A stretch of DNA of 64,000 nucleotides, taken from the sequence record NC_050153.1; one strand, written 5' to 3'. A program made the position numbers and the translations under genes. The notes under the pieces were generated by a model that saw only the letters and a list, made by a program, of their open reading frames with translations, had not been told where the DNA came from and made no database searches. Source of the DNA: Escherichia phage vB_EcoM-Ro157c2YLVW. Below, one piece after another: positions 678-63,412 of this stretch. Every line of letters begins with the position of its first letter. Positions within the stretch are counted from its first letter, which is position 1.

Positions 678-937
678 AACAATCTAGTTGAATGTTTCCT
701 CTCTGAGGTTGCAATGTGCACACTTAGTGTCTTATTTGTATGCACTAATAAATATATTATTTTTAATAATAAATAATTGACAACTGACAAGTGACTTCAG
801 TCAGAATCATCACACGCCCGGTACGGATGGATCCCTTTTCAAATATTCCATGGACGGCACAGTCTGAGTACCGGGCGCTACCTTCAGTTGTATTGCTAAG
901 CCGCCGCTGGTGGCTTTTCTTTTTTGTAGGGGGAGCT

Positions 938-1582
938 ATGGATAAGAAAATATGCGTTGTTTCGATGAGCGTCGGCAAACCGGCGTCAATGACTGCTGCA
1001 TGGATCAATAACGAGCTGATAATGGCTGAGCGGACCAGCTACCCTGAACGCCGCCGCGATATGGAACTCCAGCTGCTGCGCGAATTGCGAGAAAAAGAGG
1101 AGAAGGGTTTTATCGTGCTGGTGGAAGAGGAAAACAGCTTTATTACTGGTCGAGTTGGCCAGCGTGTAAGGTTGCGCGATCCCTTCATGAACGGCAGGCC
1201 GGTACTAATTGAGGCAATGCAGATTTATAAGGAGCTGGAACGCCAGAAAGCAATCAAGTTACCGCGCAAGGAATCCGGCAAATACATCCTCCACCAAAGC
1301 ATCTTCGATTCCGAACACGATAAAAAAGGCGATGAGTTTTTCAACATCAACTGGAGCGAAATAACGACAGAGCACGTTCTGACGTTGTTATGCTGCTTCG
1401 CAACGGAATACAACAACGTGGCAAGCGCAGACTTCATCAGGACAATGACAAACACCATTACTGAACAAGACAACAGATATTCACCATATGAACCATTTGT
1501 AAATATGATAAGAGCATTTTATCGGATGGAGCTCGCTAAAGTTCCTCAAGGTAAATTAACAGGTAAGGATAACATCTTTTAA
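938..1582 (+). CDS. Hypothetical protein (215 aa)
   Basis: ORF track 791..1582; start moved to internal ATG at 938 preceded by gggag; no recognisable motifs. Confidence 0.45.
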   Translation: MDKKICVVSMSVGKPASMTAAWINNELIMAERTSYPERRRDMELQLLRELREKEEKGFIVLVEEENSFITGRVGQRVRLRDPFMNGRPVLIEAMQIYKELERQKAIKLPRKESGKYILHQSIFDSEHDKKGDEFFNINWSEITTEHVLTLLCCFATEYNNVASADFIRTMTNTITEQDNRYSPYEPFVNMIRAFYRMELAKVPQGKLTGKDNIF

Positions 1583-1724
1583 GCATGGTAATGAGGTGCT
1601 TAGACGTTCATATCAATATCCTAACTCTCTGCATCTCATAAATCTGATAGCCACTTACTATCTATGGACTCAATCTCCACCAGAGGAATTGATGGAAAAA
1701 AATATCCCTGGGCACCCCATAGCC

Positions 1725-2324
1725 CTATCCCTTTTGATAGCTTATGACACTCAATGTTTTCAACACCTTCAGCGATGATATTCGGGCATAATTTTTTAAA
1801 TTACTAATAATGACATCAAAATGAGGATTAGTCCCATATTCTTGGAAAAAGGCCTTATCAAGTTTTATTGCATGGTATTTATTTTTAATTAATGTTTTCA
1901 TGGTGGTGTTGCCACTTCCAAAATCATCAAGCCAAACATAGTCTGTCAAAGTCAGGAGAAAGGGTATAACGTAATCCTCATCGCTTAAATCAGGGTAGTT
2001 TTCTGATATCTCAAGAGCTATAAATTTATTGTTTTTAATTAACTCTTGAGTTTGTTTATTACTGTATATATATATACATGTATCATAATCTACATTAATA
2101 GAACATAGTATATTATGGCGTTCAAAAAAACACTTGTATTTCATTATTGTGTTAAGTTGTGATTTAAGTAAATTAATCTTCATCTTATTGGTAAACATAC
2201 CCAATACTCTTTGAGTAGGAAGAGCGACACCATCTTTGGAGCGAAATCTGCTTAACACTTCTACTGCAATCAACTTGTTCGTGCTCGTAGAAATGATTGG
2301 TTCTGCAATGTAGATAACTTCCAT
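1725..2324 (-). CDS. Short EAL-domain-like protein (199 aa), probably non-catalytic
   Basis: Contains AVEVL (EAL-motif variant), LEISE, and WLDDFGSGNTT...IKLDKAFF matching the EAL-domain DDFGTG...KIDRSF core, but lacks the C-terminal EGVE/Q catalytic region; AT-rich relative to neighbours. Confidence 0.55.
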   Translation of the reverse strand: MEVIYIAEPIISTSTNKLIAVEVLSRFRSKDGVALPTQRVLGMFTNKMKINLLKSQLNTIMKYKCFFERHNILCSINVDYDTCIYIYSNKQTQELIKNNKFIALEISENYPDLSDEDYVIPFLLTLTDYVWLDDFGSGNTTMKTLIKNKYHAIKLDKAFFQEYGTNPHFDVIISNLKNYARISSLKVLKTLSVISYQKG

Positions 2325-2564
2325 ATCCCCACCCTCAAGTTTTAAATTGCTTGATTTTGCTCAGATAACGAGCCCCCTATATTTACAAGAGTTACACTCT
2401 ACTTTTGTAGATTAAATGTCAATTTATTTGTTTGTTTGTGATAATATTGAAAAACATCAATTAAAACAATCAAAAAATGTGACATAAATCAATAATTTTA
2501 TTTTTACACAACTTCTTGATTTCTGAGCCTGGCTATCTCTATTCTTATTCAAAGCCTCTTTAGA

Positions 2565-3299
2565 ATGGTGGTGGCCATGTCAGCAGTTTGTTACTTCATA
2601 CTCATAAAGAAACCTATAAGCTTTCAATTTCTTAAGGATTTCTTGATATTAAATTACGGTGATGTGTTGTTGCTTAAGCATTCTGAGCATGAATGCTTAA
2701 AAATGTATTCAGACAAATATATAGAATTCGAACTCAATGATAATACCGTAAGAAACTATTTATTATGCAGCAACAACCTTGGAAACCAATCGCTGGATAA
2801 GTGTCCACATTTGCTAAAAAAGTCTTTTGCCTATCCTGATTTATTAATCAGGATGATCGATAATATAAGCGACCAAAATCATATCCATTCTGATTTTAGG
2901 GAGGCAGTAACTTTTTCATTACTCTCAATTTTTAATGATGTTGATAACTTTAGAGCATTTCTTACGTCTGGTATGCCCACTTTCTCAGGGAAAGTGCGCA
3001 GCATATTTCTTTCAGATGTATCTAAACACTGGAAACTAAGAGACCTAACCGATTATCTCTACATGAGTGAAAGCTTAATAAAGAAAAAACTATTATTGGA
3101 AAACACCTCCTTCAGTAAGTTATTACTTGATACACGGATGGCTTTCGCTATTAAATTACTAAAGCAAAATCATTCAGTCAAACAAGTATCAGAAAGCTGT
3201 GGCTTTAGTAGTACATCGTACTTTGTGTGCCTGTTCAGGCAATATTATAATTGCACGCCACGTGAATATGCAAAACATCAGTTATTATCTGGAAAATAA
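2565..3299 (+). CDS. AraC/XylS-family transcriptional regulator (about 244 aa)
   Basis: C-terminal tandem helix-turn-helix signature typical of AraC family (…LTDYLYMSESLIKKKL…VKQVSESCGFSSTSYFVCLFRQYYNCTPREY); AT-rich gene. Confidence 0.7.
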   Translation: MVVAMSAVCYFILIKKPISFQFLKDFLILNYGDVLLLKHSEHECLKMYSDKYIEFELNDNTVRNYLLCSNNLGNQSLDKCPHLLKKSFAYPDLLIRMIDNISDQNHIHSDFREAVTFSLLSIFNDVDNFRAFLTSGMPTFSGKVRSIFLSDVSKHWKLRDLTDYLYMSESLIKKKLLLENTSFSKLLLDTRMAFAIKLLKQNHSVKQVSESCGFSSTSYFVCLFRQYYNCTPREYAKHQLLSGK

Positions 3300-3337
3300 G
3301 ATGCATTTATCTCCCAGATAATATTGTAATATTAAAC

Positions 3338-3586
3338 TCAGTCAGCATTTAGTAGCAGAGCATTATCTATGATGATCTGCTCCCATTCTTCGAATGCCCG
3401 ATCGCGGACGCCCTGGGGAACACTGTTAGTTTTGAAATCGACGACCGTACGCCATTTCCCGTCCGGACGGTACATGCGCAGAGCTTTACTTCCCCCTTCC
3501 CTGCGCACCTCAACGTTATGCTTGTCAGCAAACTCTTGTAATGCTCGTAGCGTCCCATGCTTTACTGTGTAGTATCGCTTTTTCAA
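3338..3586 (-). CDS. Small protein (82 aa), possibly Lxc/Bof-like C1 co-repressor by size and position
   Basis: 82-aa ORF overlapping the upstream ORF by 4 nt, last gene of the darB-strand operon; assignment to Lxc rests on recalled length and synteny only. Confidence 0.4.
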   Translation of the reverse strand: MKKRYYTVKHGTLRALQEFADKHNVEVRREGGSKALRMYRPDGKWRTVVDFKTNSVPQGVRDRAFEEWEQIIIDNALLLNAD

Positions 3587-4023
3587 GTTTTCTCTCCAGC
3601 CTGTGCCAAGGCTTCAACTTCCAAATCGTAAGACTCAAACTCATAGTCCTGGTCGTCAACTTCTTCAGGCACTGGCAGTAAATGCCAGGCTGAGTATATC
3701 TGACCATTATCAAAACGCTCCTGGCTGTAGAGCGTCGCGGCTATGAGTGTTAGCGCCGGGCGGTCATAACGGTAAATTTTGCGAACGTCACGGTCAACGA
3801 GACGACCGAAATTACCATAACCGCGCTCCAGTAATAATTTTTTAATTTCCGGCCAGTATGGGCCATAGCTGCGGTACAGACGGGGATTTTTCAGTAATCG
3901 CCCGCGTAGCCCTGACAGGAAGAAATCAACGTATTCGTCTTCTGTCTTTCCTAACAACGCTGTACGGAGTACCGCTTCAAGATATGTTTTATTCGGTTTT
4001 ATTGTATCAGATAGTGTGGCCAT
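3583..4023 (-). CDS. Hypothetical protein (146 aa), possibly Ulx-like
   Basis: ORF starting 34 nt downstream of the darB stop, same strand; no motif recognised. Confidence 0.4.
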   Translation of the reverse strand: MATLSDTIKPNKTYLEAVLRTALLGKTEDEYVDFFLSGLRGRLLKNPRLYRSYGPYWPEIKKLLLERGYGNFGRLVDRDVRKIYRYDRPALTLIAATLYSQERFDNGQIYSAWHLLPVPEEVDDQDYEFESYDLEVEALAQAGEKT

Positions 4024-4056: not shown

Positions 4057-7000
4057 TTATGCGTATTGTTGGATGACGGCCAGAACGTCCGCCACGTTGT
4101 GTTTTGTCTCGATAATCCACCAGTTACCCGGGAAATCGCTGTTCTTTGCCTTCGCTGGCAGCCAGCGAGCGCCGAATTTCGCCTTGATTGCGTCTTTCGC
4201 ACGGAAAAGAATGCCTTTCATGCCTGAGGCTTCCTGAAGCCCAAATACCTCGCCAGCGGCGAATTTTGGTGCGTACATCATCTTCAGGTCGGCGGTGGAT
4301 ACGCGATAATTCAGACCAAGAGACTGAGCTATGCTGGTGGCATCACCCTGTATTGATGATAACTCTTCTTGTTTCTCGTTTCTGGCGGCAATTTCTTCCT
4401 CCGTGATGTTGCCAAGGGCTAGGTTTATCCGATCAGCGTCGGCCTGTTTCTCTTCATCGGTGCGCCCGGCAAGAACCGTGTTAATTCTCTGCAATATCTC
4501 AACATGATTCTTGCGCATGCTGAGCATTTCCGGCGTAACCTCGTTAAGATCCACCAGCCCAAGGATGGCAAGGTCAGTAAACATTGATACCAGGTTGTAG
4601 GTCATGCGATAGCTGAGTTGGCCATAGGCTGATGGCAACTGCACCGCATCCATTTTATAGGCATCCATAAATTTAGAGCCGTCGTTTACGACATCCGCAA
4701 TTGCCGGTGTGATTTTTCCTGTGGTGGCGGCCTCCCTGATTGCTGTTACCCACGATTGAGTCAGCGCGGCGACTGCATGATTCAGATTGGCTTTTCGTTC
4801 TGCTGCAATGCGCGCACTTGCTGCGTCCATTGCCTGCTTGATCTCGTCTTTATTGCTGTAAATGCCAATGGTGCCAAACTGTGCTGTGGTGATCTCATAA
4901 TCTGACGCCCGGAACTCATTGGTACCGAAAATGGCATTGGTGACTTCAAGTTCAGAATCCCCGTTACGAGTAGCCCCCTGGCTTGTTTTTTCCGGCATTC
5001 TGGCGATCGCCTCCGCTATTTTCTCCTGAATTGCTTCAGGGGATAGCGTATCTCCGTATGACGCGATTACATCGCCATAATTGGAGCCAAACAATTCAAC
5101 CAGGAATGTTTCTGCCGAACGGATCTGGCGGTTATTCCCTTCCGACATCATACCAAGCACCCATTTTGCAATTGACGACTTCAGCGCGCCGTCACGGCGA
5201 TCCGGGTAAACCGCATGCTTCAGTGGGTCCGTATAGGTACCAACAAAATCAATGCTATAGCCTGACTCTGTAGTCTGAACGCCGTATGAGTCAGTGATTT
5301 TGATCATGCCGCGCTGCTGGAAACGGTAGAAATCGTCACAGGAAATGATGTCGTTAATCCCGGCGATGGAGACGCCACCACTGATTTTCTGCATAACAGC
5401 ATCTTCATCAGGAGTTACATCAACCTGTTTATCCAGCGTCTTCACATCCCAGTTACCCGATTTGGTGCCTTTGAAGGTAAAGATGATCTCCACGTCTGCG
5501 CGCTGGCTGTCGAAGTCCAGCGACTTAATGCGAACGATATCACCGGCACAATCGTAGTATTGGCCTACACGCCATGAGCGATCGCCGATAACAAGGAACT
5601 CACTCGCATGGTTAACCAGATCAGGATCAACATCCAGAATGCCTTTATTTATTGCATCCTCCACCAGCGGGCGCAGGCGTTTGATATCCGTCGCGGCCTT
5701 CTGAGTACGGTTCAATAATTTCTCATAGCGGGAGATGGCCTGAGAGATATTAGCCTTGCGCTGAATGGCGCTTTTCAACGACGCGCGATACTGTGCTAAC
5801 AACGTACGGTCTGTGTGATGGACGCTACCCCAGCGGGCTTTCCAGTCTGCGTTATCAGCTGCTTTGGCCATTACCGCCTGTTTGAATTTAGCTACCTCGG
5901 CGGTGGTCTTTTCAAGTTCCGCTTTGCTTCGCTCTAATTCAGCGGTAAGTACCTCCACATCCTCGCCTGCTGCGTGCTGCGCCTTGATGTAGTTCTGAAG
6001 GTCGATAGTAGCCTGTTCTTTCTGGCGAGCGCGTTGCGCGGCTTTCGCCTTATCCATTTGAACCTGCATCATTGCCAGACGTTCGCCATCATCCTTAGCG
6101 GTATACATCTGCATTTCGATCATATCGTTGGCGTCGGCGTTCTCCATTTCAGACTTATCTGAGCGGAGGATATCGGAGATCCAGCCTGCTTTACGCTTCA
6201 GCGTCTTCAGTCGGTATTCATCGAAAGAACCCTTGCCGCAGTAGTAGTGAACGCGAACGCTTGCACGGTTGGAACCAACTCGGGCACCGCGACCGTTACG
6301 CTGTGCGATACTGGCTGGTGTCCATGGCAACGTCAGATGATGGATGTCAGTCGTTCCTCGATGCAGGTTGATACCCACCTCTGCCTTTTTGGTGCAGATG
6401 ATGATCGGAGTCCGGCCCTCCTGGAAGTCGGCAGCAATCTTTTCCAGCCCGCCCAGCGACATTTCATTTTGCTGCGCGATATAGGCGTCATACAGAGCCA
6501 TTTGCTCGTTGTATTTCGCTATCTGTGCATCTGTTGGTTCATCCGGTAGCTCTTTCGGCGGTTTAACCGCTTTCAGTTTCTTACCGGTTTTACCTGCCTC
6601 GGCAACCGTCTGAGCATTCAGGATCCCCACCTTTGAAGGTTCAAGGTTAAGAGCATTGCAGATAATGCGCTTGAGCTTCTGGTGTTGCGTTTTTTCATCG
6701 GTGAAGATGATTTGCTTCCCTTCCGGGAAAAACTCCTTCAGCGTGGCAATCAGCTTCGCGTATTTGGGCGTAACGGGGTGAGTTACGGTCTGTTCGTCAA
6801 TGCCAAACCTGGCCAGGCGCTTATTCACTTCCTGCTCAAATGCTTCCGGTACCTGCAACTGAATAAACTCGCCCTTATCTATCAGGGAGTATTGCGATTG
6901 CTGCGTGATAGAATCATCACTGTCGTCGTCTTCGCTGGTGGCTTGTTTAGGCAAACTGTCCGCCAGCTGCTGCACCGCATCGGCGTACTCCGGCAGGAAA

Positions 7001-10000
7001 CGATAGGTGATCCGGCGATAGTACAGGTCCATGTCAGTACATACGCGGTCCATATCCCTGATTATTGAGAAGATCGGACGGGCTTTCTCGTGCTCAATCA
7101 CGCCGTCTTCATTGACCGAGGACGTTACGCCATTGTTGGCTTTGGCTGCCGCTTCCGCCTGCTGACGCAATTCTTCATACGCCGCCAGTTGTTCTTCAGT
7201 AAGTGGTGCATCCTGCTGGTGTTCGTCCAGCTCCGGGATCTCCACGGTATCCTTAACGTCTTCCGCCGTTTTAAGCGTTACCCAGCGATGGAATATACCG
7301 CGCAGCGCATCAAGGTTTTCAAAGCCCACCAGCGCCATTTTTTCTTCAACTTCACCGCTGATTTTCTGTACCGTTTCCAGCCTGGTCTTGCCGAAGAATT
7401 TAACGAAGTCATCAGGACCGTAGATCCCCATCTTCTGCCAGTATTCCTTCGGCAGAACATGAGAGAGCATGTTGTATGCATCGATCGGGGTGTTAACGAC
7501 TGGCGTTGCAGTCAGGAGAACCGGTCCGCGCCCGCCATTCTTTTTCATCAGGTACGCGTTTTTGATTGCCATATCCCGCGCCGATTGCGCCACCGCGCTG
7601 GTGGGCAGATAGGCCAGTTGTGACGCTTCGCGACCATTTTTATAGCTATTGCGGTAGTTGTGACCTTCGTCGGCGATCACACTATCGAAGCCCATATCCT
7701 CAAAGTACGGATACTTCTCTGCTTTTTCGGTACCGGTATCTGAATACTCCGACAATACCCAGCGACGCGCCGCCTCTTTACGATGGGAGTCGGAATCCAT
7801 TGCGCTGGCTACGCGCCCGGCGGCAACGAAGTCATAAAGCATGTCTTGTGCATGCTCATCTACGGTGTCATCACGTAGCGGAATGCGGGCGTATTGTTCT
7901 TTGGTAAACACGACTGCACGGTAATTTGAGTGCGGGATCGCGTTCATCCGCGCCGTGATAGTGGCTTCATCTGCCAGCTTAAGAGCATCGCGCATAACTG
8001 GAGTGCCATCAGTACCAAGAACAGGTTTACCGTTCTCATCGAGCACCGGCACCTGGCGAATCTGATCACCATCCATCAGCACATCAAGACCGACGAACAG
8101 GTAGTTACTGAATGCCTCTTCACTCAGGAACTCTTTTGCTTCGTAATACCAGTTTTCCAGCACTGATTTAGGCACTACATAAGCAGTACGGGTGGAGCGA
8201 CCGTTCTCATAGTTGAACGCCTCAAGCGCCAGCGCGGTCGTGGTTTTACCCAGCCCGGTGCCGAAGCCCAGGATGCCGCGCCCATCTTCGGACAGTCGGC
8301 GCACCTCGCTATTCTGGTAATCAAATGGCTGGCGCTTACCGCTTAATCCCTTCAACCCAAGCGGATCGCCAGAGTGTTCATACGGGATATTGCTATTGAA
8401 CACATCGTTGTATTTGGCAACCAGCTCATCGTAGCGATCGTGCGTCTTGATCCACTTATTGAACTGGTCCTCAAGCAGTGCCATCTGCTCGCGGTAGCCG
8501 TTCGCCGTCGCGCTATCTTTGCCACCGATACGCGCACCATTGAGATACTTTTCCAGCTGTGCCGGGAACCCGGTCGCGTTTTCACCTGATTTACGGTCCC
8601 ACTCGTAGCGGATCTCGCCTGTTTCTTTATCCTTGCGCTGGACGACACCGTATCGGTGCCCGACGAACAGACCATCACCACCGTGATAGGTGTCAGAAAC
8701 CATTTCGTCGCCTTCCAGCTGCACTGACTGCACATAGCGCAGATCCGGATAGCCGTTTTCCTGCAAAAACTCCAGAATGACGGAGCGGTCGAACCAACGG
8801 CTATTGAGCTTAAAGCGGATATTCTCTGCTGGCGTCTTGATGCGCTTCTCTTCGATCGCTGCCAGCTGATTAAGGACGTTGTTCTTTACTGGACCGTCGG
8901 GGAGCGTGGCGAGGAATTCCTGTTTTGGAGCCACTATCTCGTTAATGTCGCCGCTGGTGGCGCGGGCGAACGGAACAATCCCGCCATACGGTGAAACCGC
9001 AATGCCAGGGGTGCTGGCCAATAAATTAAGCAACTCATCATCACTGGCTGGCAGTTCGCCGGTAAACGCAAGGCGGAAATCATCGAGCTGGATTGGATCG
9101 CGAGTGAGATCACTGTAGAGATAACGCAGGGTGTCCTGATAGCTGGTGGAGTCATAACTGGCGCTGGAATCATGCGTAACCAGTTTTCCTGTCAGCTCGT
9201 CAGAAATAGTGCCATCCAGCTTAATTGCACCACGGAAAGCAAACCAGGCGCGCGCACCGCTCCCCGATAATTTCGCTATCGGACCGCGACCGGGGTTACC
9301 AAAACGGTCAATCTCTGCCTGCAAACGGGATACCAGAGAAAGGCGCTGCTGTTCGATTTGTTCAGCACTATGCCCGGCGGCCTTCATGTCCTGATATTCA
9401 ATTAACATCCGGCCAATCATCGCCCCGCGATACAAGCGTTCACGGTATTTTTCAGGCTGGCTGTTAATCCAGTCCACCAGCTGCACCATATCGTCGCTGA
9501 TTGATGTGGTGTACTTATCGCGGACATTTGCCATCTGGGTAAATGTCATGCCGAGACGGCCTTCTGTTGTAGTCAGGTTACGCTGAAGAGCCTCCCAGCT
9601 ATCCGCGCCATAACTGGCAGCATCGATCTTAAGTTCCTTCCCGGCATCAGCTTCAATCCAGCGACCACCAGCATATTTTTGCCATACGCCATTAATCAGG
9701 CGCATTTCCCCTTCACCAACAACGTCTGCGGTCGGTGACGGTTCAGCCATATCGAGCAAAGACCAGTCGATACGGCTTTCGAAACGATGAATCAGCTTCG
9801 CTTTAAGAGCCTGGTTATCAATCTGACCGTCGGCACGAACCTCAATACGCCCCCGGAAGCCCTTTTCTTGGGTGCCATGAACAAACCGGCGGCCATCCTT
9901 TTCAAACCACTTGCCAGAAATAAACGTTGGCCAAAGCACATTTGCTGATTCAAGAGTGCTTTCATCCACCAGGGGGATTTTCTCAGCCATCTCTGCCGGA

Positions 10001-25852: not shown

Positions 25853-26429
25853 ATTGCGGGGCGACTGGCCACTCAACATCCGCTGCTACTGCTGTATCAA
25901 CACGATTCAACAATACCCGATATGTCTTCCATGCAGTCAGTAACGATGCCTCTTCCTCCGTCGCAATATCCAAATCTACGGCATCCTGAAGTGGCGCAAT
26001 ATGCTCACTGGCCATCTGCATCAGGCTGTTTTTTGTTTCTTCCGCCTTCCGGATCCGGAACAGTTTTTCTGCTTCTGCATCTTTCACCCAGGCTGTGCCG
26101 TTCCACTTCTGAAACTCCCCTTCCGGGGATAACCAGGTGACATTTTCCGGTAATGGGCCAAGTTCAGAAATAAATAACGCGTCGCCGGAAGCCACGTCAT
26201 AGACGGTTTTTCCCCGATGGTCTTCAACGAGATTCCACGATGCCTCATCACTGTTGAAAACGGCCACGAAGCCAGCCGGAATATCTGGCGGGGCAATATC
26301 GGTACTGTTTGCAGGCAGACCTGTATGAGGTGGAATGTATGCATCACCTTCACCAATAAACTCATTGGTTCCGGTCAGTAGATTATAAATTTTTATGGTC
26401 CGTGATTGTTCACTCATTCTGAATGTCAT
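25851..26429 (-). CDS. Tail fibre assembly chaperone (Tfa-like, 192 aa)
   Basis: Located immediately downstream of the tail fibre gene, size and acidic composition typical of Tfa/U proteins; start overlaps fibre stop. Confidence 0.6.
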
Positions 26430-39339: not shown

Positions 39340-39429
39340 AGTCGCGAATGCTATCTTTTCGCATCATATTGACCTTTTAATCGTTCAGGCTTATAGTTCC
39401 GCCGTCGTAGCAAATTCTGCGACCGGGTT

Positions 39430-39644
39430 TAGCAGCCTGAATGATTGTGCGGACAGCCGCAGATATCCGATATTGCGGTATTTTTGTGTCCGTAAAACCG
39501 CGTTACGCCCAAATTATGGTGGGGCGTGATGGGGAGGCTTCGGCCTGCTGGTTTCACAATCGCCAGTCTGCTAACCCCGTCACGTCCTGCCACCTGTTTA
39601 GCAGCGGGTAGCAGGTTGTTAAACCTGATTGTGAGGCCGTAACT
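39430..39644 (+). ncRNA. c4-like antisense RNA and leader of the right immunity-I module (ends not defined)
   Basis: Antisense element tcacaatc (about 39555-39561) complementary to gattgtg at about 39443-39449 and at about 39627-39633, the latter lying 12 nt upstream of the icd ATG over the putative Shine-Dalgarno; UUCG-tetraloop hairpin aggcttcggcct nearby. Confidence 0.45.
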
Positions 39645-43035: not shown

Positions 43036-43124
43036 TACAATCGTTGCGGGTGCTTGAGGCTATCTGCTTCAGGCATTACCCGAAAAGCAGATAGAAGAAA
43101 GCCCCAGATAACATTACGCGTCCT

Positions 43125-43195
43125 GCAAGACGCTTAACATTAATCTGAGGCCACATCTATGCTTAGCATACGTAGATTAGCCTCTTACCGACCAA
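43125..43195 (-). ncRNA. Predicted Sok-like antisense RNA (position inferred, not demonstrated)
   Basis: By analogy with hok/sok, the antisense RNA covers the mok initiation region; the 5' tac element (gcttgaggct at about 43048) and 3' fold-back region (about 43385-43430) of the hok mRNA are recognisable. Confidence 0.3.
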
Positions 43196-43365
43196 AAGGT
43201 CAAGGAGAAGCAGGCTATGAAGCAGCAAAAAGCGATGTTAATCGCTCTGATCGTCATCTGTTTAACCGTCATTGTGACGGCACTGGTAACGAGGAAAGAC
43301 CTCTGCGAGGTACGAATCCGAACCGGCCAGACGGAGGTCACTGTCTTCACAGCCTACGAATCTGA
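43159..43365 (+). CDS. mok: Mok-like overlapping reading frame of the hok locus
   Basis: ORF overlapping the hok-like gene in another frame, as in hok/mok/sok loci. Confidence 0.45.
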   Translation: MLSIRRLASYRPKGQGEAGYEAAKSDVNRSDRHLFNRHCDGTGNEERPLRGTNPNRPDGGHCLHSLRI

Positions 43366-61157: not shown

Positions 61158-61232
61158 GATGGTGTAGCTCAGCGGTAGAGCAGTTGGCTGTTAACCAACT
61201 GGTCGGTAGTTCGAATCCACCCACCATCGCCA
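61158..61232 (+). tRNA. tRNA-Asn (anticodon GTT)
   Basis: Cloverleaf with 7-bp acceptor GATGGTG/CACCATC, anticodon stem GTTGG/CCAAC, loop CTGTTAA, T-loop TTCGAAT, encoded CCA. Confidence 0.85.
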
Positions 61233-61237
61233 CTTTA

Positions 61238-61324
61238 GGGGAGTTAGTCCGTAGGGGTAGCGGGGTAGACTGTAAATCTACTGTCATTGCGACTCGGGTG
61301 GTTCGACTCCATCACTCCCCACCA
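61238..61324 (+). tRNA. tRNA-like gene, class II, reading as tRNA-Tyr (anticodon GTA), atypical D-arm
   Basis: Acceptor GGGGAGT/ACTCCCC, anticodon stem GTAGA/TCTAC with loop CTGTAAA, long variable arm with GTC/GAC stem, T-arm GGTGG-TTCGACT-CCATC, encoded CCA; the D-stem cannot be drawn canonically. Confidence 0.5.
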
Positions 61325-61328
61325 CATT

Positions 61329-61404
61329 GCCGATTTAGCTCAGTTGGTAGAGCAGTCGCTTTGTAAGCGAATGGTCAGCGGTTCGATCCCGTTAATCGGC
61401 ACCA
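61329..61404 (+). tRNA. tRNA-Thr (anticodon TGT)
   Basis: Acceptor GCCGATT/AATCGGC, D-arm GCTC-AGTTGGTA-GAGC, anticodon loop TTTGTAA, T-loop TTCGATC, encoded CCA. Confidence 0.85.
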
Positions 61405-62135
61405 ACATAACAGGTAAGAGCATTCTCCCTTATGGGGCCTGGCTTAAATGCATCGAGTGCTCTTACCGTTGTGATGAAGTGCAGATCTTAGAAGCAACCA
61501 GAAGATAAGCATCTGGCTTCACAACATAAACCGCAGGAACGACCAATAAACGGTAGTCCGTATGGAGAACACCCCGTTGAGGAAGAGGCCTGGCCGGAAC
61601 CGTAACCGGCGACTGGTAATGTGTGTAAATGGAGCGAAATATGTGGGCGTTTAACGGGATACGGGTTGTAACAGCGATTATTAACGGCGAACTTAAGTAT
61701 TCACGTTTCGAGACAAATGAACGTGATGGGAAATGTATTGGTGTGCGGTTAGTAAGAGAATACGCATAACAACTACAACGTTGAGAACACTGGCGTAACG
61801 GGGTCATATCCCAATCTACGAATAAATGTTGCGTTGCCGCGTGACAACCAGTGTTCTCAACATTGTGGTGAATGCACAGGCTGATGTGCCGCAACTACAG
61901 TAGTGCGCGCTTTGCGGGGCTTGCTACAACCCTGTGTCGGAGTTCAGCACCGACCATCACAGTTTGATTCTCTGGCATGAGCATAACGCTGAAATAAGTC
62001 CAGTCTGGTGCGGTCTGATCACCCGCCGTTAGCTCCACGAAACGGAGCACGTAACAGGTAAGAGCATTCTCCTGTAACAATCTACAGGTCCACCAAGAAT
62101 GCTCTTTCCGTTGCGGTGAATGCGGCTAAGCGCAC
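61405..62135 (+). repeat. Three copies of a conserved hairpin-plus-tail element in a largely non-coding stretch
   Basis: Copies at about 61405-61495, 61775-61885 and 62050-62135: long stems (ggtaagagcattct / agaatgctctt; gttgagaacactgg / ccagtgttctcaac), each followed by GTTGYGRTGAAKGC. Confidence 0.4.
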
Positions 62136-62264
62136 GCGGGGAAATGGTTATATCTGTCCATTATTTCTCCTTGTTTCCACGTCCACGGTGGATAACCAGC
62201 CAAAGGACACCGGGAGGAACCCGGCACCGCAGCTTTTTTATTCGTTAAATAATGGAGTGAGAGG

Positions 62265-62501
62265 ATGCAGAACAATCCGAACAAATGTCGAACGCTATGG
62301 GTGCGGTTATATATTTATGCCGTCCTCTGTTTGATTGTGTCACTGGTTCTGTATGTTTGGCTTTTGCCAAATATGATCTCATCTAACAGCACAATACTTG
62401 TATTGTTGGGAGTCCTTCTCGCGCTCATTTACCCGGCTTTCGCAGTAGTCTTTTTTCGTGAAAAAACCAGGAAATTAATTAATGAAAAAAACGTTGATTA
62501 G
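62265..62501 (+). CDS. Small integral membrane protein (78 aa)
   Basis: Two hydrophobic helices; overlaps start of the next gene. Confidence 0.4.
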   Translation: MQNNPNKCRTLWVRLYIYAVLCLIVSLVLYVWLLPNMISSNSTILVLLGVLLALIYPAFAVVFFREKTRKLINEKNVD

Positions 62502-63309
62502 TGCAGCGATTATTTTGGGTTCTTTATGTCTGACCGGATGCGATCGGGTAGAGCCAGGTAACGTAGGGATCAAAGTAAATAAGCTGGGGGATGATAAAGG
62601 TATCGGTGAAGTAGTTGGCGTTGGTCGCTACTGGACAGGCTTGAATACTGAAGTTTATATCTTCCCGACCTTTAAGCAAATGAAGACATACGATGAGCCG
62701 TTCAGCTTCCAGATGAGCGACGGAACAACCATTGGTTACCACATCGGCGTAGCCTACAAGGTTGATCCAGCAAAAGTCACAACGGTATTTCAGACCTATC
62801 GCAAAGGTGTAGATGATATTACTGATACCGATCTACGCCAGAAGGTTGCAGATGCTCTGAACCGATTAGCCAGCAAAATGACCACCGACAAATTTATCGA
62901 CGGTGGCAAATCTGAATTGCTTGATGCAGCCCTTAAAGACATTCAGGAAGAAATGACGCCAATCGGCATTCAGGTGATGAGCCTCTCTTATGTAGGTAAG
63001 CCAGAATACCCGCCAACAGTTATTGACAGTATTAACGCCAAAGTCACGGCAAACCAAAAAACCCTGCAACGCGAGCAAGAGGTCAAACAACGTGAAGCAG
63101 AGGCCAACATGCTGCGCGCGGAAGCTGCCGGACAGGCTGATGCTATTCGCACAAAAGCCCAGGCCGAAGCTGATGCCATTCGTTTACGTGGTGAAGCTCT
63201 GCGCCAGAACCCCGGTGTTATGGACTTGGAAGCGATCAACAAATGGAACGGTACATTACCGCAGTATATGACCAGTAATACCGCTGTTCCGTTTGTTCCG
63301 GTGAAATAA
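62482..63309 (+). CDS. SPFH/band-7-domain lipoprotein (275 aa)
   Basis: Lipoprotein signal MKKTLISAAIILGSLCLTGC; C-terminal Ala/Glu/Arg-rich coiled coil typical of stomatin/prohibitin-like proteins. Confidence 0.6.
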   Translation: MKKTLISAAIILGSLCLTGCDRVEPGNVGIKVNKLGDDKGIGEVVGVGRYWTGLNTEVYIFPTFKQMKTYDEPFSFQMSDGTTIGYHIGVAYKVDPAKVTTVFQTYRKGVDDITDTDLRQKVADALNRLASKMTTDKFIDGGKSELLDAALKDIQEEMTPIGIQVMSLSYVGKPEYPPTVIDSINAKVTANQKTLQREQEVKQREAEANMLRAEAAGQADAIRTKAQAEADAIRLRGEALRQNPGVMDLEAINKWNGTLPQYMTSNTAVPFVPVK

Positions 63310-63336
63310 AAGCGTAAGCAAAATTGGCAGTAATCC

Positions 63337-63412
63337 GGCCCTTTAGCTCAGTGGTTAGAGCTGGCGACTCATAATCGCACGGTCACCGGTTCAAGTCCGG
63401 TAGGGGCCACCA
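63337..63412 (+). tRNA. tRNA with CAT anticodon, most like tRNA-Ile2 (lysidine type)
   Basis: GGCCCTT…AGGGGCC acceptor, anticodon loop CTCATAA, T-loop TTCAAGT; near-identical to E. coli ileX as recalled. Confidence 0.75.

Follow-up and report, generated by a model that had tools for sequence, protein, structure and literature searches.

The P1-like phage-plasmid represented by Escherichia phage vB_EcoM-Ro157c2YLVW (NC_050153.1) carries, between its mat and lxc genes, a divergent pair of genes for an EAL-domain protein and an AraC-family regulator. The window, meaning the whole 64,000-nucleotide stretch that was analyzed, is placed among the P1-like elements by its annotated relatives and by PHROGs. 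A first-pass annotation made from the sequence had called the pair as two open reading frames (ORFs) at 1725-2324 (minus strand, 199 aa) and 2565-3299 (plus strand, 244 aa), and both are present. Pfam profile searches agree with the families proposed there, all scores being above the gathering thresholds: the 199-aa ORF matches the EAL domain (PF00563) at 48.9 bits (cutoff 31.3), and the AraC protein contains a C-terminal double helix-turn-helix (HTH) that matches HTH_18 (PF12833) at 50.7 bits (cutoff 33.6) and HTH_AraC (PF00165) at 38.5 bits (cutoff 26.6). The pair consists of the following features.

1636..2324, minus strand: remnant of the whole EAL gene, 689 nt long, intact relatives having 690 nt (alignment with the DNA of four relatives)
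1725..2324, minus strand: the 199-aa ORF, with residues 1-177 native and the last 22 out of frame
1791..1796, minus strand: frameshift site, A6 on the coding strand (T6 on the plus strand), where intact alleles have A7 or A6G
1636..1790, minus strand: out-of-frame remainder, the C-terminal fifth of the EAL domain, including beta7, beta8, E186-G-V-E189 and Q206-G
2325..2576, no strand: divergent intergenic control region, 252 bp, guanine-cytosine (GC) content 0.31 (alignment, promoter scan and repeats)
2577..3299, plus strand: intact AraC/XylS-family regulator, YdeO-like over its full length, 240 aa (Pfam and NCBIfam YdeO model)

The 199-aa ORF is a fragment of a longer gene. In the DNA alignment with four relatives there is a single 1-nt gap (column 541), and the sequences on both sides of it are conserved up to a stop codon common to the window and the relatives, the TGA at 1636-1638. 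Sequence 3' of the A-run still encodes, in the shifted frame, ...CPNIIAEGVENIECHKLSKGIGLWGAQGYFFPSIPLVEIESIDSKWLSDL* up to this ancestral stop. Restoring one base yields a 229-aa protein with the C-terminus ...KKLCPNIIAEGVENIECHKLSKGIGLWGAQGYFFPS..., and this repaired translation is identical to P0049, a 229-aa protein recorded on 216 contigs; window positions 1636..1790, read in the shifted frame, are 100% identical to P0049 residues 178-229. The repair raises the Pfam EAL score to 64.8 bits and extends coverage of the profile from positions 14-206 to 14-233 of 236. In the phage and plasmid relatives examined (87% to 97% DNA identity), the EAL gene is 690 nt long and encodes 229 aa. Thus, what the first-pass annotation took for a naturally short, non-enzymatic EAL-like regulator is a truncated, A7 to A6 allele of a 229-aa gene, the intact family of which keeps its catalytic residues. 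It is true of the ORF, as stated there, that C-terminal catalytic residues are missing, but the cause is one lost homopolymer base, and the remainder is encoded in the next frame. The native part retains EVLSR, N77, E105xxE108, D133D134FG and K154. The frameshift after residue 177 removes E186, E189 and Q206, leaving the catalytic set of the encoded protein incomplete, and in the AlphaFold2 (AF2) model discussed below strands 183-186 and 204-206 (beta7 and beta8) fall in the part that is lost. With these losses, the EAL copy in the window is incapable of enzymatic activity and is unlikely to fold.

The frameshifted protein (P0048) was found on ~10 contigs from independent samples, in addition to the NCBI record of phage vB_EcoM-Ro157c2YLVW, and five of these loci (L018-L022) are 99.7-100% identical to the window over 2.2 kb. 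A change of one base in a homopolymer is a classic sequencing or assembly error, and the gene could on that account be intact in the real element. However, the identical 199-aa protein and the 2.2 kb of DNA come from at least five separately assembled runs or genomes (L018-L022) as well as the NCBI phage record. The recurrence of the same allele in at least five independent assemblies rules out such an error as the source of the frameshift, and we give this explanation next to no weight. The deletion is therefore real, and the frameshifted allele is a circulating, although rare, minority allele; IMG/VR holds seven intact copies of the EAL gene and no frameshifted one. The IMG/VR contig L034, which carries an A7 allele, has no mismatches and two gaps relative to window positions 1400-3600, and therefore the window allele is a very recent A7 to A6 slippage deletion. 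At 2429-2440 the window also has one extra TTTG unit in an intergenic TTTG repeat compared with the other aligned alleles (alignment columns 117-120), which probably accounts for the second gap against L034.

A different feature of the same site is seen in the intact A6G alleles of loci L001, L003 and L004, which at the position homologous to window 1791-1797 read TT-A AAA AAG in frame. The A_AAA_AAG sequence is a classic -1 slippery heptamer in the correct phase, although it is probably coincidental, given the AT-rich Lys-Lys context. Programmed -1 frameshifting at this heptamer was considered and set aside: the window allele would need a +1 shift, and in the intact alleles the -1 frame ends after ~8 codons, from a reading of the sequence.

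For the active site, we aligned ~120 stand-alone EAL proteins from two database searches with reference sequences and scored eleven catalytic, metal-binding or substrate-binding positions. P0049 has all 11 (E22, R26, N77, E105, E108, D133, D134, K154, E186, E189 and Q206). All closer relatives, to 42% identity, also have 11/11, and more distant ones, to ~27% identity, mostly keep 10 or 11 of 11. Among the control proteins, the active enzymes PdeL and PdeH scored 11/11 and 10/11, and the non-enzymatic STM1697 and YdiV scored 7/11 and 4/11. Every catalytic residue lost by YdiV and STM1697 is kept in the P1-borne family, which therefore looks enzymatic rather than degenerate. In a rough neighbor-joining (NJ) tree, the P1-borne protein falls in its own, all-intact clade of Escherichia coli accessory EAL-only proteins, apart from the YdiV and STM1697 clades, which degenerated separately. 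Comparison of module alleles gives the EAL gene a ratio of nonsynonymous to synonymous substitution rates (dN/dS) of 0.13-0.16, indicative of purifying selection, and the AF2 model of the near-identical protein P0001 has a complete EAL barrel with a predicted local distance difference test (pLDDT) score of 92.9. The intact 229-aa protein is most likely an active stand-alone cyclic diguanylate (c-di-GMP) phosphodiesterase, and our reading of the family is that it combines a compact, YdiV-like architecture with an enzyme-type active site.

Pairwise identities of P0049 to the named EAL proteins of enterobacteria are low: 26% to PdeH (YhjH) and 28% each to YdiV and STM1697. The P1-borne protein is similar to PdeH in being a single EAL domain without a sensor domain and with the catalytic residues kept, in having a non-canonical loop 6 of the DFGxG(M/N)xx type, and in that its best NCBIfam match is the PRK11596 model, aligned over the full length. 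It differs from PdeH in its length (229 versus 255 aa, without the N-terminal extension) and in its genetic setting, because the P1-borne gene is AT-rich, is paired with an AraC gene and is carried by plasmids and phages, whereas PdeH belongs to the flagellar regulon. E. coli also has accessory genes for EAL-only proteins, PdeY/SfaY and PdeX among them, that lie downstream of fimbrial operons. Homologues 43-49% identical to the P1-borne protein occur after a pap-type operon or beside genes for serine protease autotransporters of Enterobacteriaceae (SPATEs), and all of these have 11/11 positions; unlike the P1-borne gene, they have no YdeO-like partner.

The most closely related proteins of solved structure are STM1697 (E 1.4e-27) and YdiV (E 3.6e-21). 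Foldseek searches with the P0001 model gave template modeling (TM) scores of 0.88 to 3tlq and 0.84/0.91 to 5hxg (YdiV and STM1697), as against ~0.72-0.83 for active EAL enzymes. Like YdiV/RflP (STM1344) and STM1697, the P1-borne protein is a compact stand-alone EAL fold of ~230 aa, but the hallmark of that group is the loss of catalytic residues, with c-di-GMP neither bound nor cleaved (PMC5622320). The published contacts of STM1697 with FlhD are F160, L172, L173, K167, K175 and H176 (PMC5622320). The hydrophobic contacts F160, L172 and L173 are conservatively kept as F159, V171 and I172 in P0049, and the polar contacts K167, K175 and H176 are replaced by N166, S174 and N175. I146 is another conservatively kept hydrophobic position, and of the YdiV interface residues (F155, F168, F181, A184), A184 is opposite a gap of four residues. 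Because EAL domains in general conserve F159, it does not discriminate.

The second gene of the pair encodes an intact regulator. Its start is likely the ATG at 2577, giving 240 aa rather than the 244 aa of the ORF as called: relatives in RefSeq are annotated at 723 bp, the homologue on an IncFII plasmid has no upstream ATG, and the alignment with the NCBIfam YdeO equivalog model (NF007407) begins there. Residues 5-237 of the 244-aa ORF align with positions 1-232 of 253 in this model at 155 bits, below its cutoff of 348 bits, and the protein is 35% identical to YdeO of K-12 over 233 aa (E 1e-47); it would thus be YdeO-like rather than YdeO itself. The C-terminal half is 38-41% identical to AppY and EnvY (41% for AppY). 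The exact protein is recorded on 258 contigs, and dN/dS for the gene is 0.08-0.11. Among the AT-rich AraC regulators of acid resistance, to which YdeO belongs, three (AppY, PatE and PsrB) are encoded in prophages and act on acid-resistance genes (PMC10057817). The P1-borne regulator resembles the YdeO/AppY/PatE/PsrB type in its full-length alignment with YdeO and in its similarity to AppY and EnvY in the DNA-binding half, and shares with AppY, PatE and PsrB a location on a temperate phage element (PMC10057817); unlike any of those regulators, it is linked to an EAL gene. Among proteins of solved structure, the closest are CsvR, Rns and GadX. Proteins of the Rns/CsvR/ToxT type match over their full length (E ~1e-20, residues 42-232), but identity is low and no fimbrial or toxin operon adjoins the AraC gene here.

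The two genes appear to travel as a unit. An IncFII plasmid has an EAL/AraC pair in the same divergent arrangement, the genes lying ~250 bp apart, with identities of ~68% for the EAL protein and 80% for the AraC protein, and an intergenic block at ~2476-2528 is conserved even in this version. More distant EAL homologues (43-56% identity), on plasmids or islands, have as neighbors different AraC-type genes, fimbrial operons or genes for SPATE autotransporters. A promoter scan of the intergenic region detected one weak promoter-like site (2416-2445), which faces the AraC gene, and Rfam searches gave no structured RNA match between 1583 and 3337. The hexamer TTGATT/AATCAA occurs in the intergenic region in four copies versus 0.36 expected. 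We rejected it as a candidate operator: the best 6-mer reaches four copies in 35% of shuffles, so that the count is not significant after post hoc choice.

The pair occupies a gap in the backbone of the element, flanked as follows.

791..1582, plus strand: mat (maturation control), left flank (annotations of relatives; phrog_1837; BLAST break points)
3338..3586, minus strand: lxc (modulator of C1), right flank (annotations of relatives; PHROGs)
3583-4023, minus strand: ulx (annotations of relatives; PHROGs)
4057-10824, minus strand: darB, 2255 aa (annotations of relatives; PHROGs)
3283..3323, no strand: AT-rich hairpin with a 17-bp stem, between the convergent AraC and lxc genes and overlapping the AraC stop (terminator scan)

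By BLAST, the window stops matching P1 and RCS47 at ~1447 and matches them again from 3342. The marked AT-richness pointed out in the first-pass annotation is confirmed, as the GC content of 1583-3337 is 0.330 compared with 0.476 for the window, the lowest of all 1755-bp segments in the 64 kb (5th percentile 0.402). In RCS47 the mat-lxc gap is empty (39 bp). In P1 it holds res-mod, a type III restriction-modification (R-M) system, with the insertion sequence IS5, and in the Escherichia albertii plasmid pEA18_2 the slot contains the EAL/AraC pair and res-mod together. Variability of the res-mod region among P1-like elements has been documented (PMC9603915). No insertion sequence is annotated beside the cassette in the relatives examined, the junctions of which were not searched for flanking repeats. 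The 3' end of mat (1448-1582) has also diverged from P1 and RCS47, and the variable segment starts inside mat rather than at its stop codon. One record, OP279344.1 (L001), is entitled "phage P1 isolate del res del mod", but where P1 has res-mod it has the EAL/AraC pair (an 87% allele), so that it is more than P1 with res-mod deleted. The hairpin at 3283..3323 could, as a pattern match, be a bidirectional terminator.

In a sample of 5426 complete E. coli genomes, P1-like lxc-ulx is present in 699, and 146 of these (~21%) have the cassette, nearly always on plasmids. The cassette copies are only 80-90% identical to that of the window in 129 of the 146 records, whereas 695 of 703 records have lxc-ulx at 95-99% identity, and cassette alleles differ between P1-like lineages by a synonymous divergence (dS) of 0.4-0.7. 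Cassette alleles are diverse while lxc-ulx is nearly uniform, and therefore the sequences indicate an old, polymorphic occupant of the mat-lxc slot rather than a recent arrival. The recent acquisition suggested in the first-pass annotation on the basis of AT content is thus not required. Within the E. coli collection, the cassette allele nearest to that of the window (97.4%; L003) lies in a record labeled as the chromosome of E. coli ST2747 (NZ_CP007393.1, ~2.165-2.179 Mb). In the P1-like segment there, darB is frameshifted, a cre-like recombinase is broken and a trio of GlxA, metallo-beta-lactamase (MBL)-hydrolase and ester-cyclase genes has been inserted; the segment could be either an integrated, decaying P1-like element or a misassembly.

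Disruption of the pair is not confined to the window allele. The P0015 lineage (56% identical, 292 cluster members) has independently lost 1 nt from the homologous A-run, its DDFG has changed to DNLG, and it appears to be a second, separately decayed copy of the EAL family; the P0015 homologue is carried on large plasmids near a pap-like fimbrial operon (L006-L009, e.g. L008:6001-6759). Within the EAL gene there is also a (TA)5 tract at window positions 2074-2084 (coding strand ...TGTATATATATATACAG...). The variant P0050 (149 aa, 17 contigs) begins with MIHVYIYSNKQ, as expected from a shift of frame in this tract, and at the protein level looks like such a frameshift. On some plasmids IS5 is inserted within the EAL/AraC pair. 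Given the A-run shifts, the (TA)5 variant and the IS5 insertions, loss of EAL/AraC function is therefore recurrent, and we take it for the ordinary decay of tracts that are prone to slippage; that these tracts serve as a switch is possible but unsupported.

On balance, we favor the view that the two genes form a mobile regulatory module, which a P1-like phage-plasmid carries as cargo in its variable slot between mat and lxc, with the EAL gene knocked out in the window. The intact 229-aa protein would hydrolyze c-di-GMP, and a lower c-di-GMP level in the lysogen would favor motility over curli and cellulose biofilm. The divergent YdeO/AppY/Rns-type AraC activator probably switches on the AT-rich, presumably H-NS-silenced module, and may also act on the acid-resistance, motility or biofilm regulons of the host, as do other phage-borne regulators of the YdeO/AppY type. 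In the copy in the window, the gene for this putative phosphodiesterase has been inactivated by the A7 to A6 deletion, so that only the regulator is intact here. Several observations weigh against this reading. Loop 6 of P0049 is DFGSGNTTM, compared with the canonical DFG(T/A)GYSS, and activity could be low or conditional, although the active enzyme PdeH has DFGTGMANF at this position. The proteins of solved structure that come nearest in sequence and predicted fold, YdiV and STM1697, are non-enzymatic, and the PdeH equivalog model is matched at 95 bits, below its cutoff of 190 bits. In PHROGs both genes are listed as of unknown function. In the promoter scan the EAL gene lacked a convincing sigma-70 promoter, and what suggests its control by the AraC protein is the conserved divergent arrangement.

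The closeness to YdiV and STM1697 raises the alternative that the protein, in its intact or even its truncated form, is a non-enzymatic factor that binds FlhD and shuts down flagellar genes. Both the sequence matches to solved structures and the fold matches given above rank these two proteins ahead of the active enzymes, one phage record annotates a homologue as "putative anti-FlhC(2)FlhD(4) factor YdiV" (ydiV), and the hydrophobic core of the FlhD interface (F159, V171, I172) is kept upstream of the frameshift. However, F159 is common to EAL domains generally, the polar contacts have become N, S and N, and the residue equivalent to A184 of YdiV falls in a gap. The identity of 28% to either protein is about that to PdeH (26%), and the P1-borne protein lies outside both degenerate clades of the rough NJ tree. 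The loss of catalytic residues that characterizes this group is absent, with 11/11 positions kept under purifying selection, and the truncated form lacks two strands of the barrel. We therefore consider a YdiV-like function unlikely. In a further reading, the intact protein would be an evolutionary and functional intermediate, catalytically alive but with the YdiV/STM1697 fold, and would act as a c-di-GMP-dependent "trigger" regulator (e.g. of FlhD4C2), toggled by slippage in the A7 and (TA)5 tracts. This seems to us a quite improbable reading; if true, lysogens would gain a heritable, reversible polymorphism in motility and biofilm formation, and the window would represent an OFF-state copy.

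About as improbable is that the 199-aa product is itself a selected, functional short form, whether a regulator that is neofunctionalized or dominant-negative or one position of an ON/OFF switch driven by slippage. The allele does persist in ~10 independent samples, the P0015 lineage has its own 1-nt deletion in the homologous A-run, and P0050, on 17 contigs, resembles a (TA)5-tract frameshift. But A7 and (TA)5 are short for contingency loci, the intact allele outnumbers the frameshifted one ~20 to 1 (with none of seven in IMG/VR frameshifted), and the DDFG to DNLG change in P0015 fits plain decay. In addition, the new 22-residue tail is frame noise, and with beta7 and beta8 gone a stable fold is, from the model, unlikely. 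A role of the pair in phage defense or counter-defense, for example through a nuclease for cyclic-dinucleotide signals, might be suspected because the slot is otherwise the place of a type III R-M system and lies next to the anti-restriction genes ulx and darB. Homologues, however, occur beside fimbrial operons, SPATE autotransporters and plasmid maintenance genes rather than in defense islands, and EAL domains are known to be specific for c-di-GMP. PADLOC searches with both proteins gave a single match of 13.9 bits, which is at chance level, and no known defense system. We regard a defense function as very improbable.

If, as in the reading we favor, the intact gene encodes an active phosphodiesterase under a YdeO-like activator, lysogeny could shift the c-di-GMP signaling of the host, with effects on motility and biofilm formation and perhaps on acid-resistance regulons. 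This would be a lysogenic-conversion trait beyond antibiotic resistance in P1-like phage-plasmids, which are now studied mainly as carriers of resistance genes. The first-pass annotation had proposed a host-regulatory cassette in which the EAL partner is degenerate. The first part stands, in that an AT-rich, mobile EAL/AraC cargo pair occupies a variable slot and a role in lysogenic conversion is a reasonable reading of the gene content, and the degenerate EAL part does not, a truncated version of a gene that is longer in relatives being what the annotation itself had named as grounds for refuting it. The components of the module are of known kinds, a probable stand-alone EAL phosphodiesterase and a YdeO-type AraC regulator on a mobile element, and the combination is in that respect unsurprising. 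Public records annotate the pair mostly by domain names only, the exception being the phage record with ydiV. We found no published description of the pair on P1-like elements in a literature search that did not take in the E. coli GGDEF/EAL pangenome paper (PMC4686209). For annotation, the lesson is that the apparently "degenerate" protein of the window is a frameshifted allele and not a natural non-enzymatic EAL-like regulator.

The surroundings of the cassette include an immunity-I region, as the first-pass annotation had noted. Rfam matches (RF01695 and RF03163) place a C4 antisense RNA with its a1b1 target at 391-597 on the minus strand, beside the cassette, and a second such locus at 39391-39597 on the plus strand, which gives the element two regions of the immunity-I type. 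Upstream of mat, relatives have an icd-like gene and a KilAC antirepressor gene instead of ref. Other Rfam matches in the window are to an IS009 RNA, a sok antitoxin RNA (hok/sok-type) and a cluster of four tRNA genes (25888-26086, 43048-43222 and 61158-63409).

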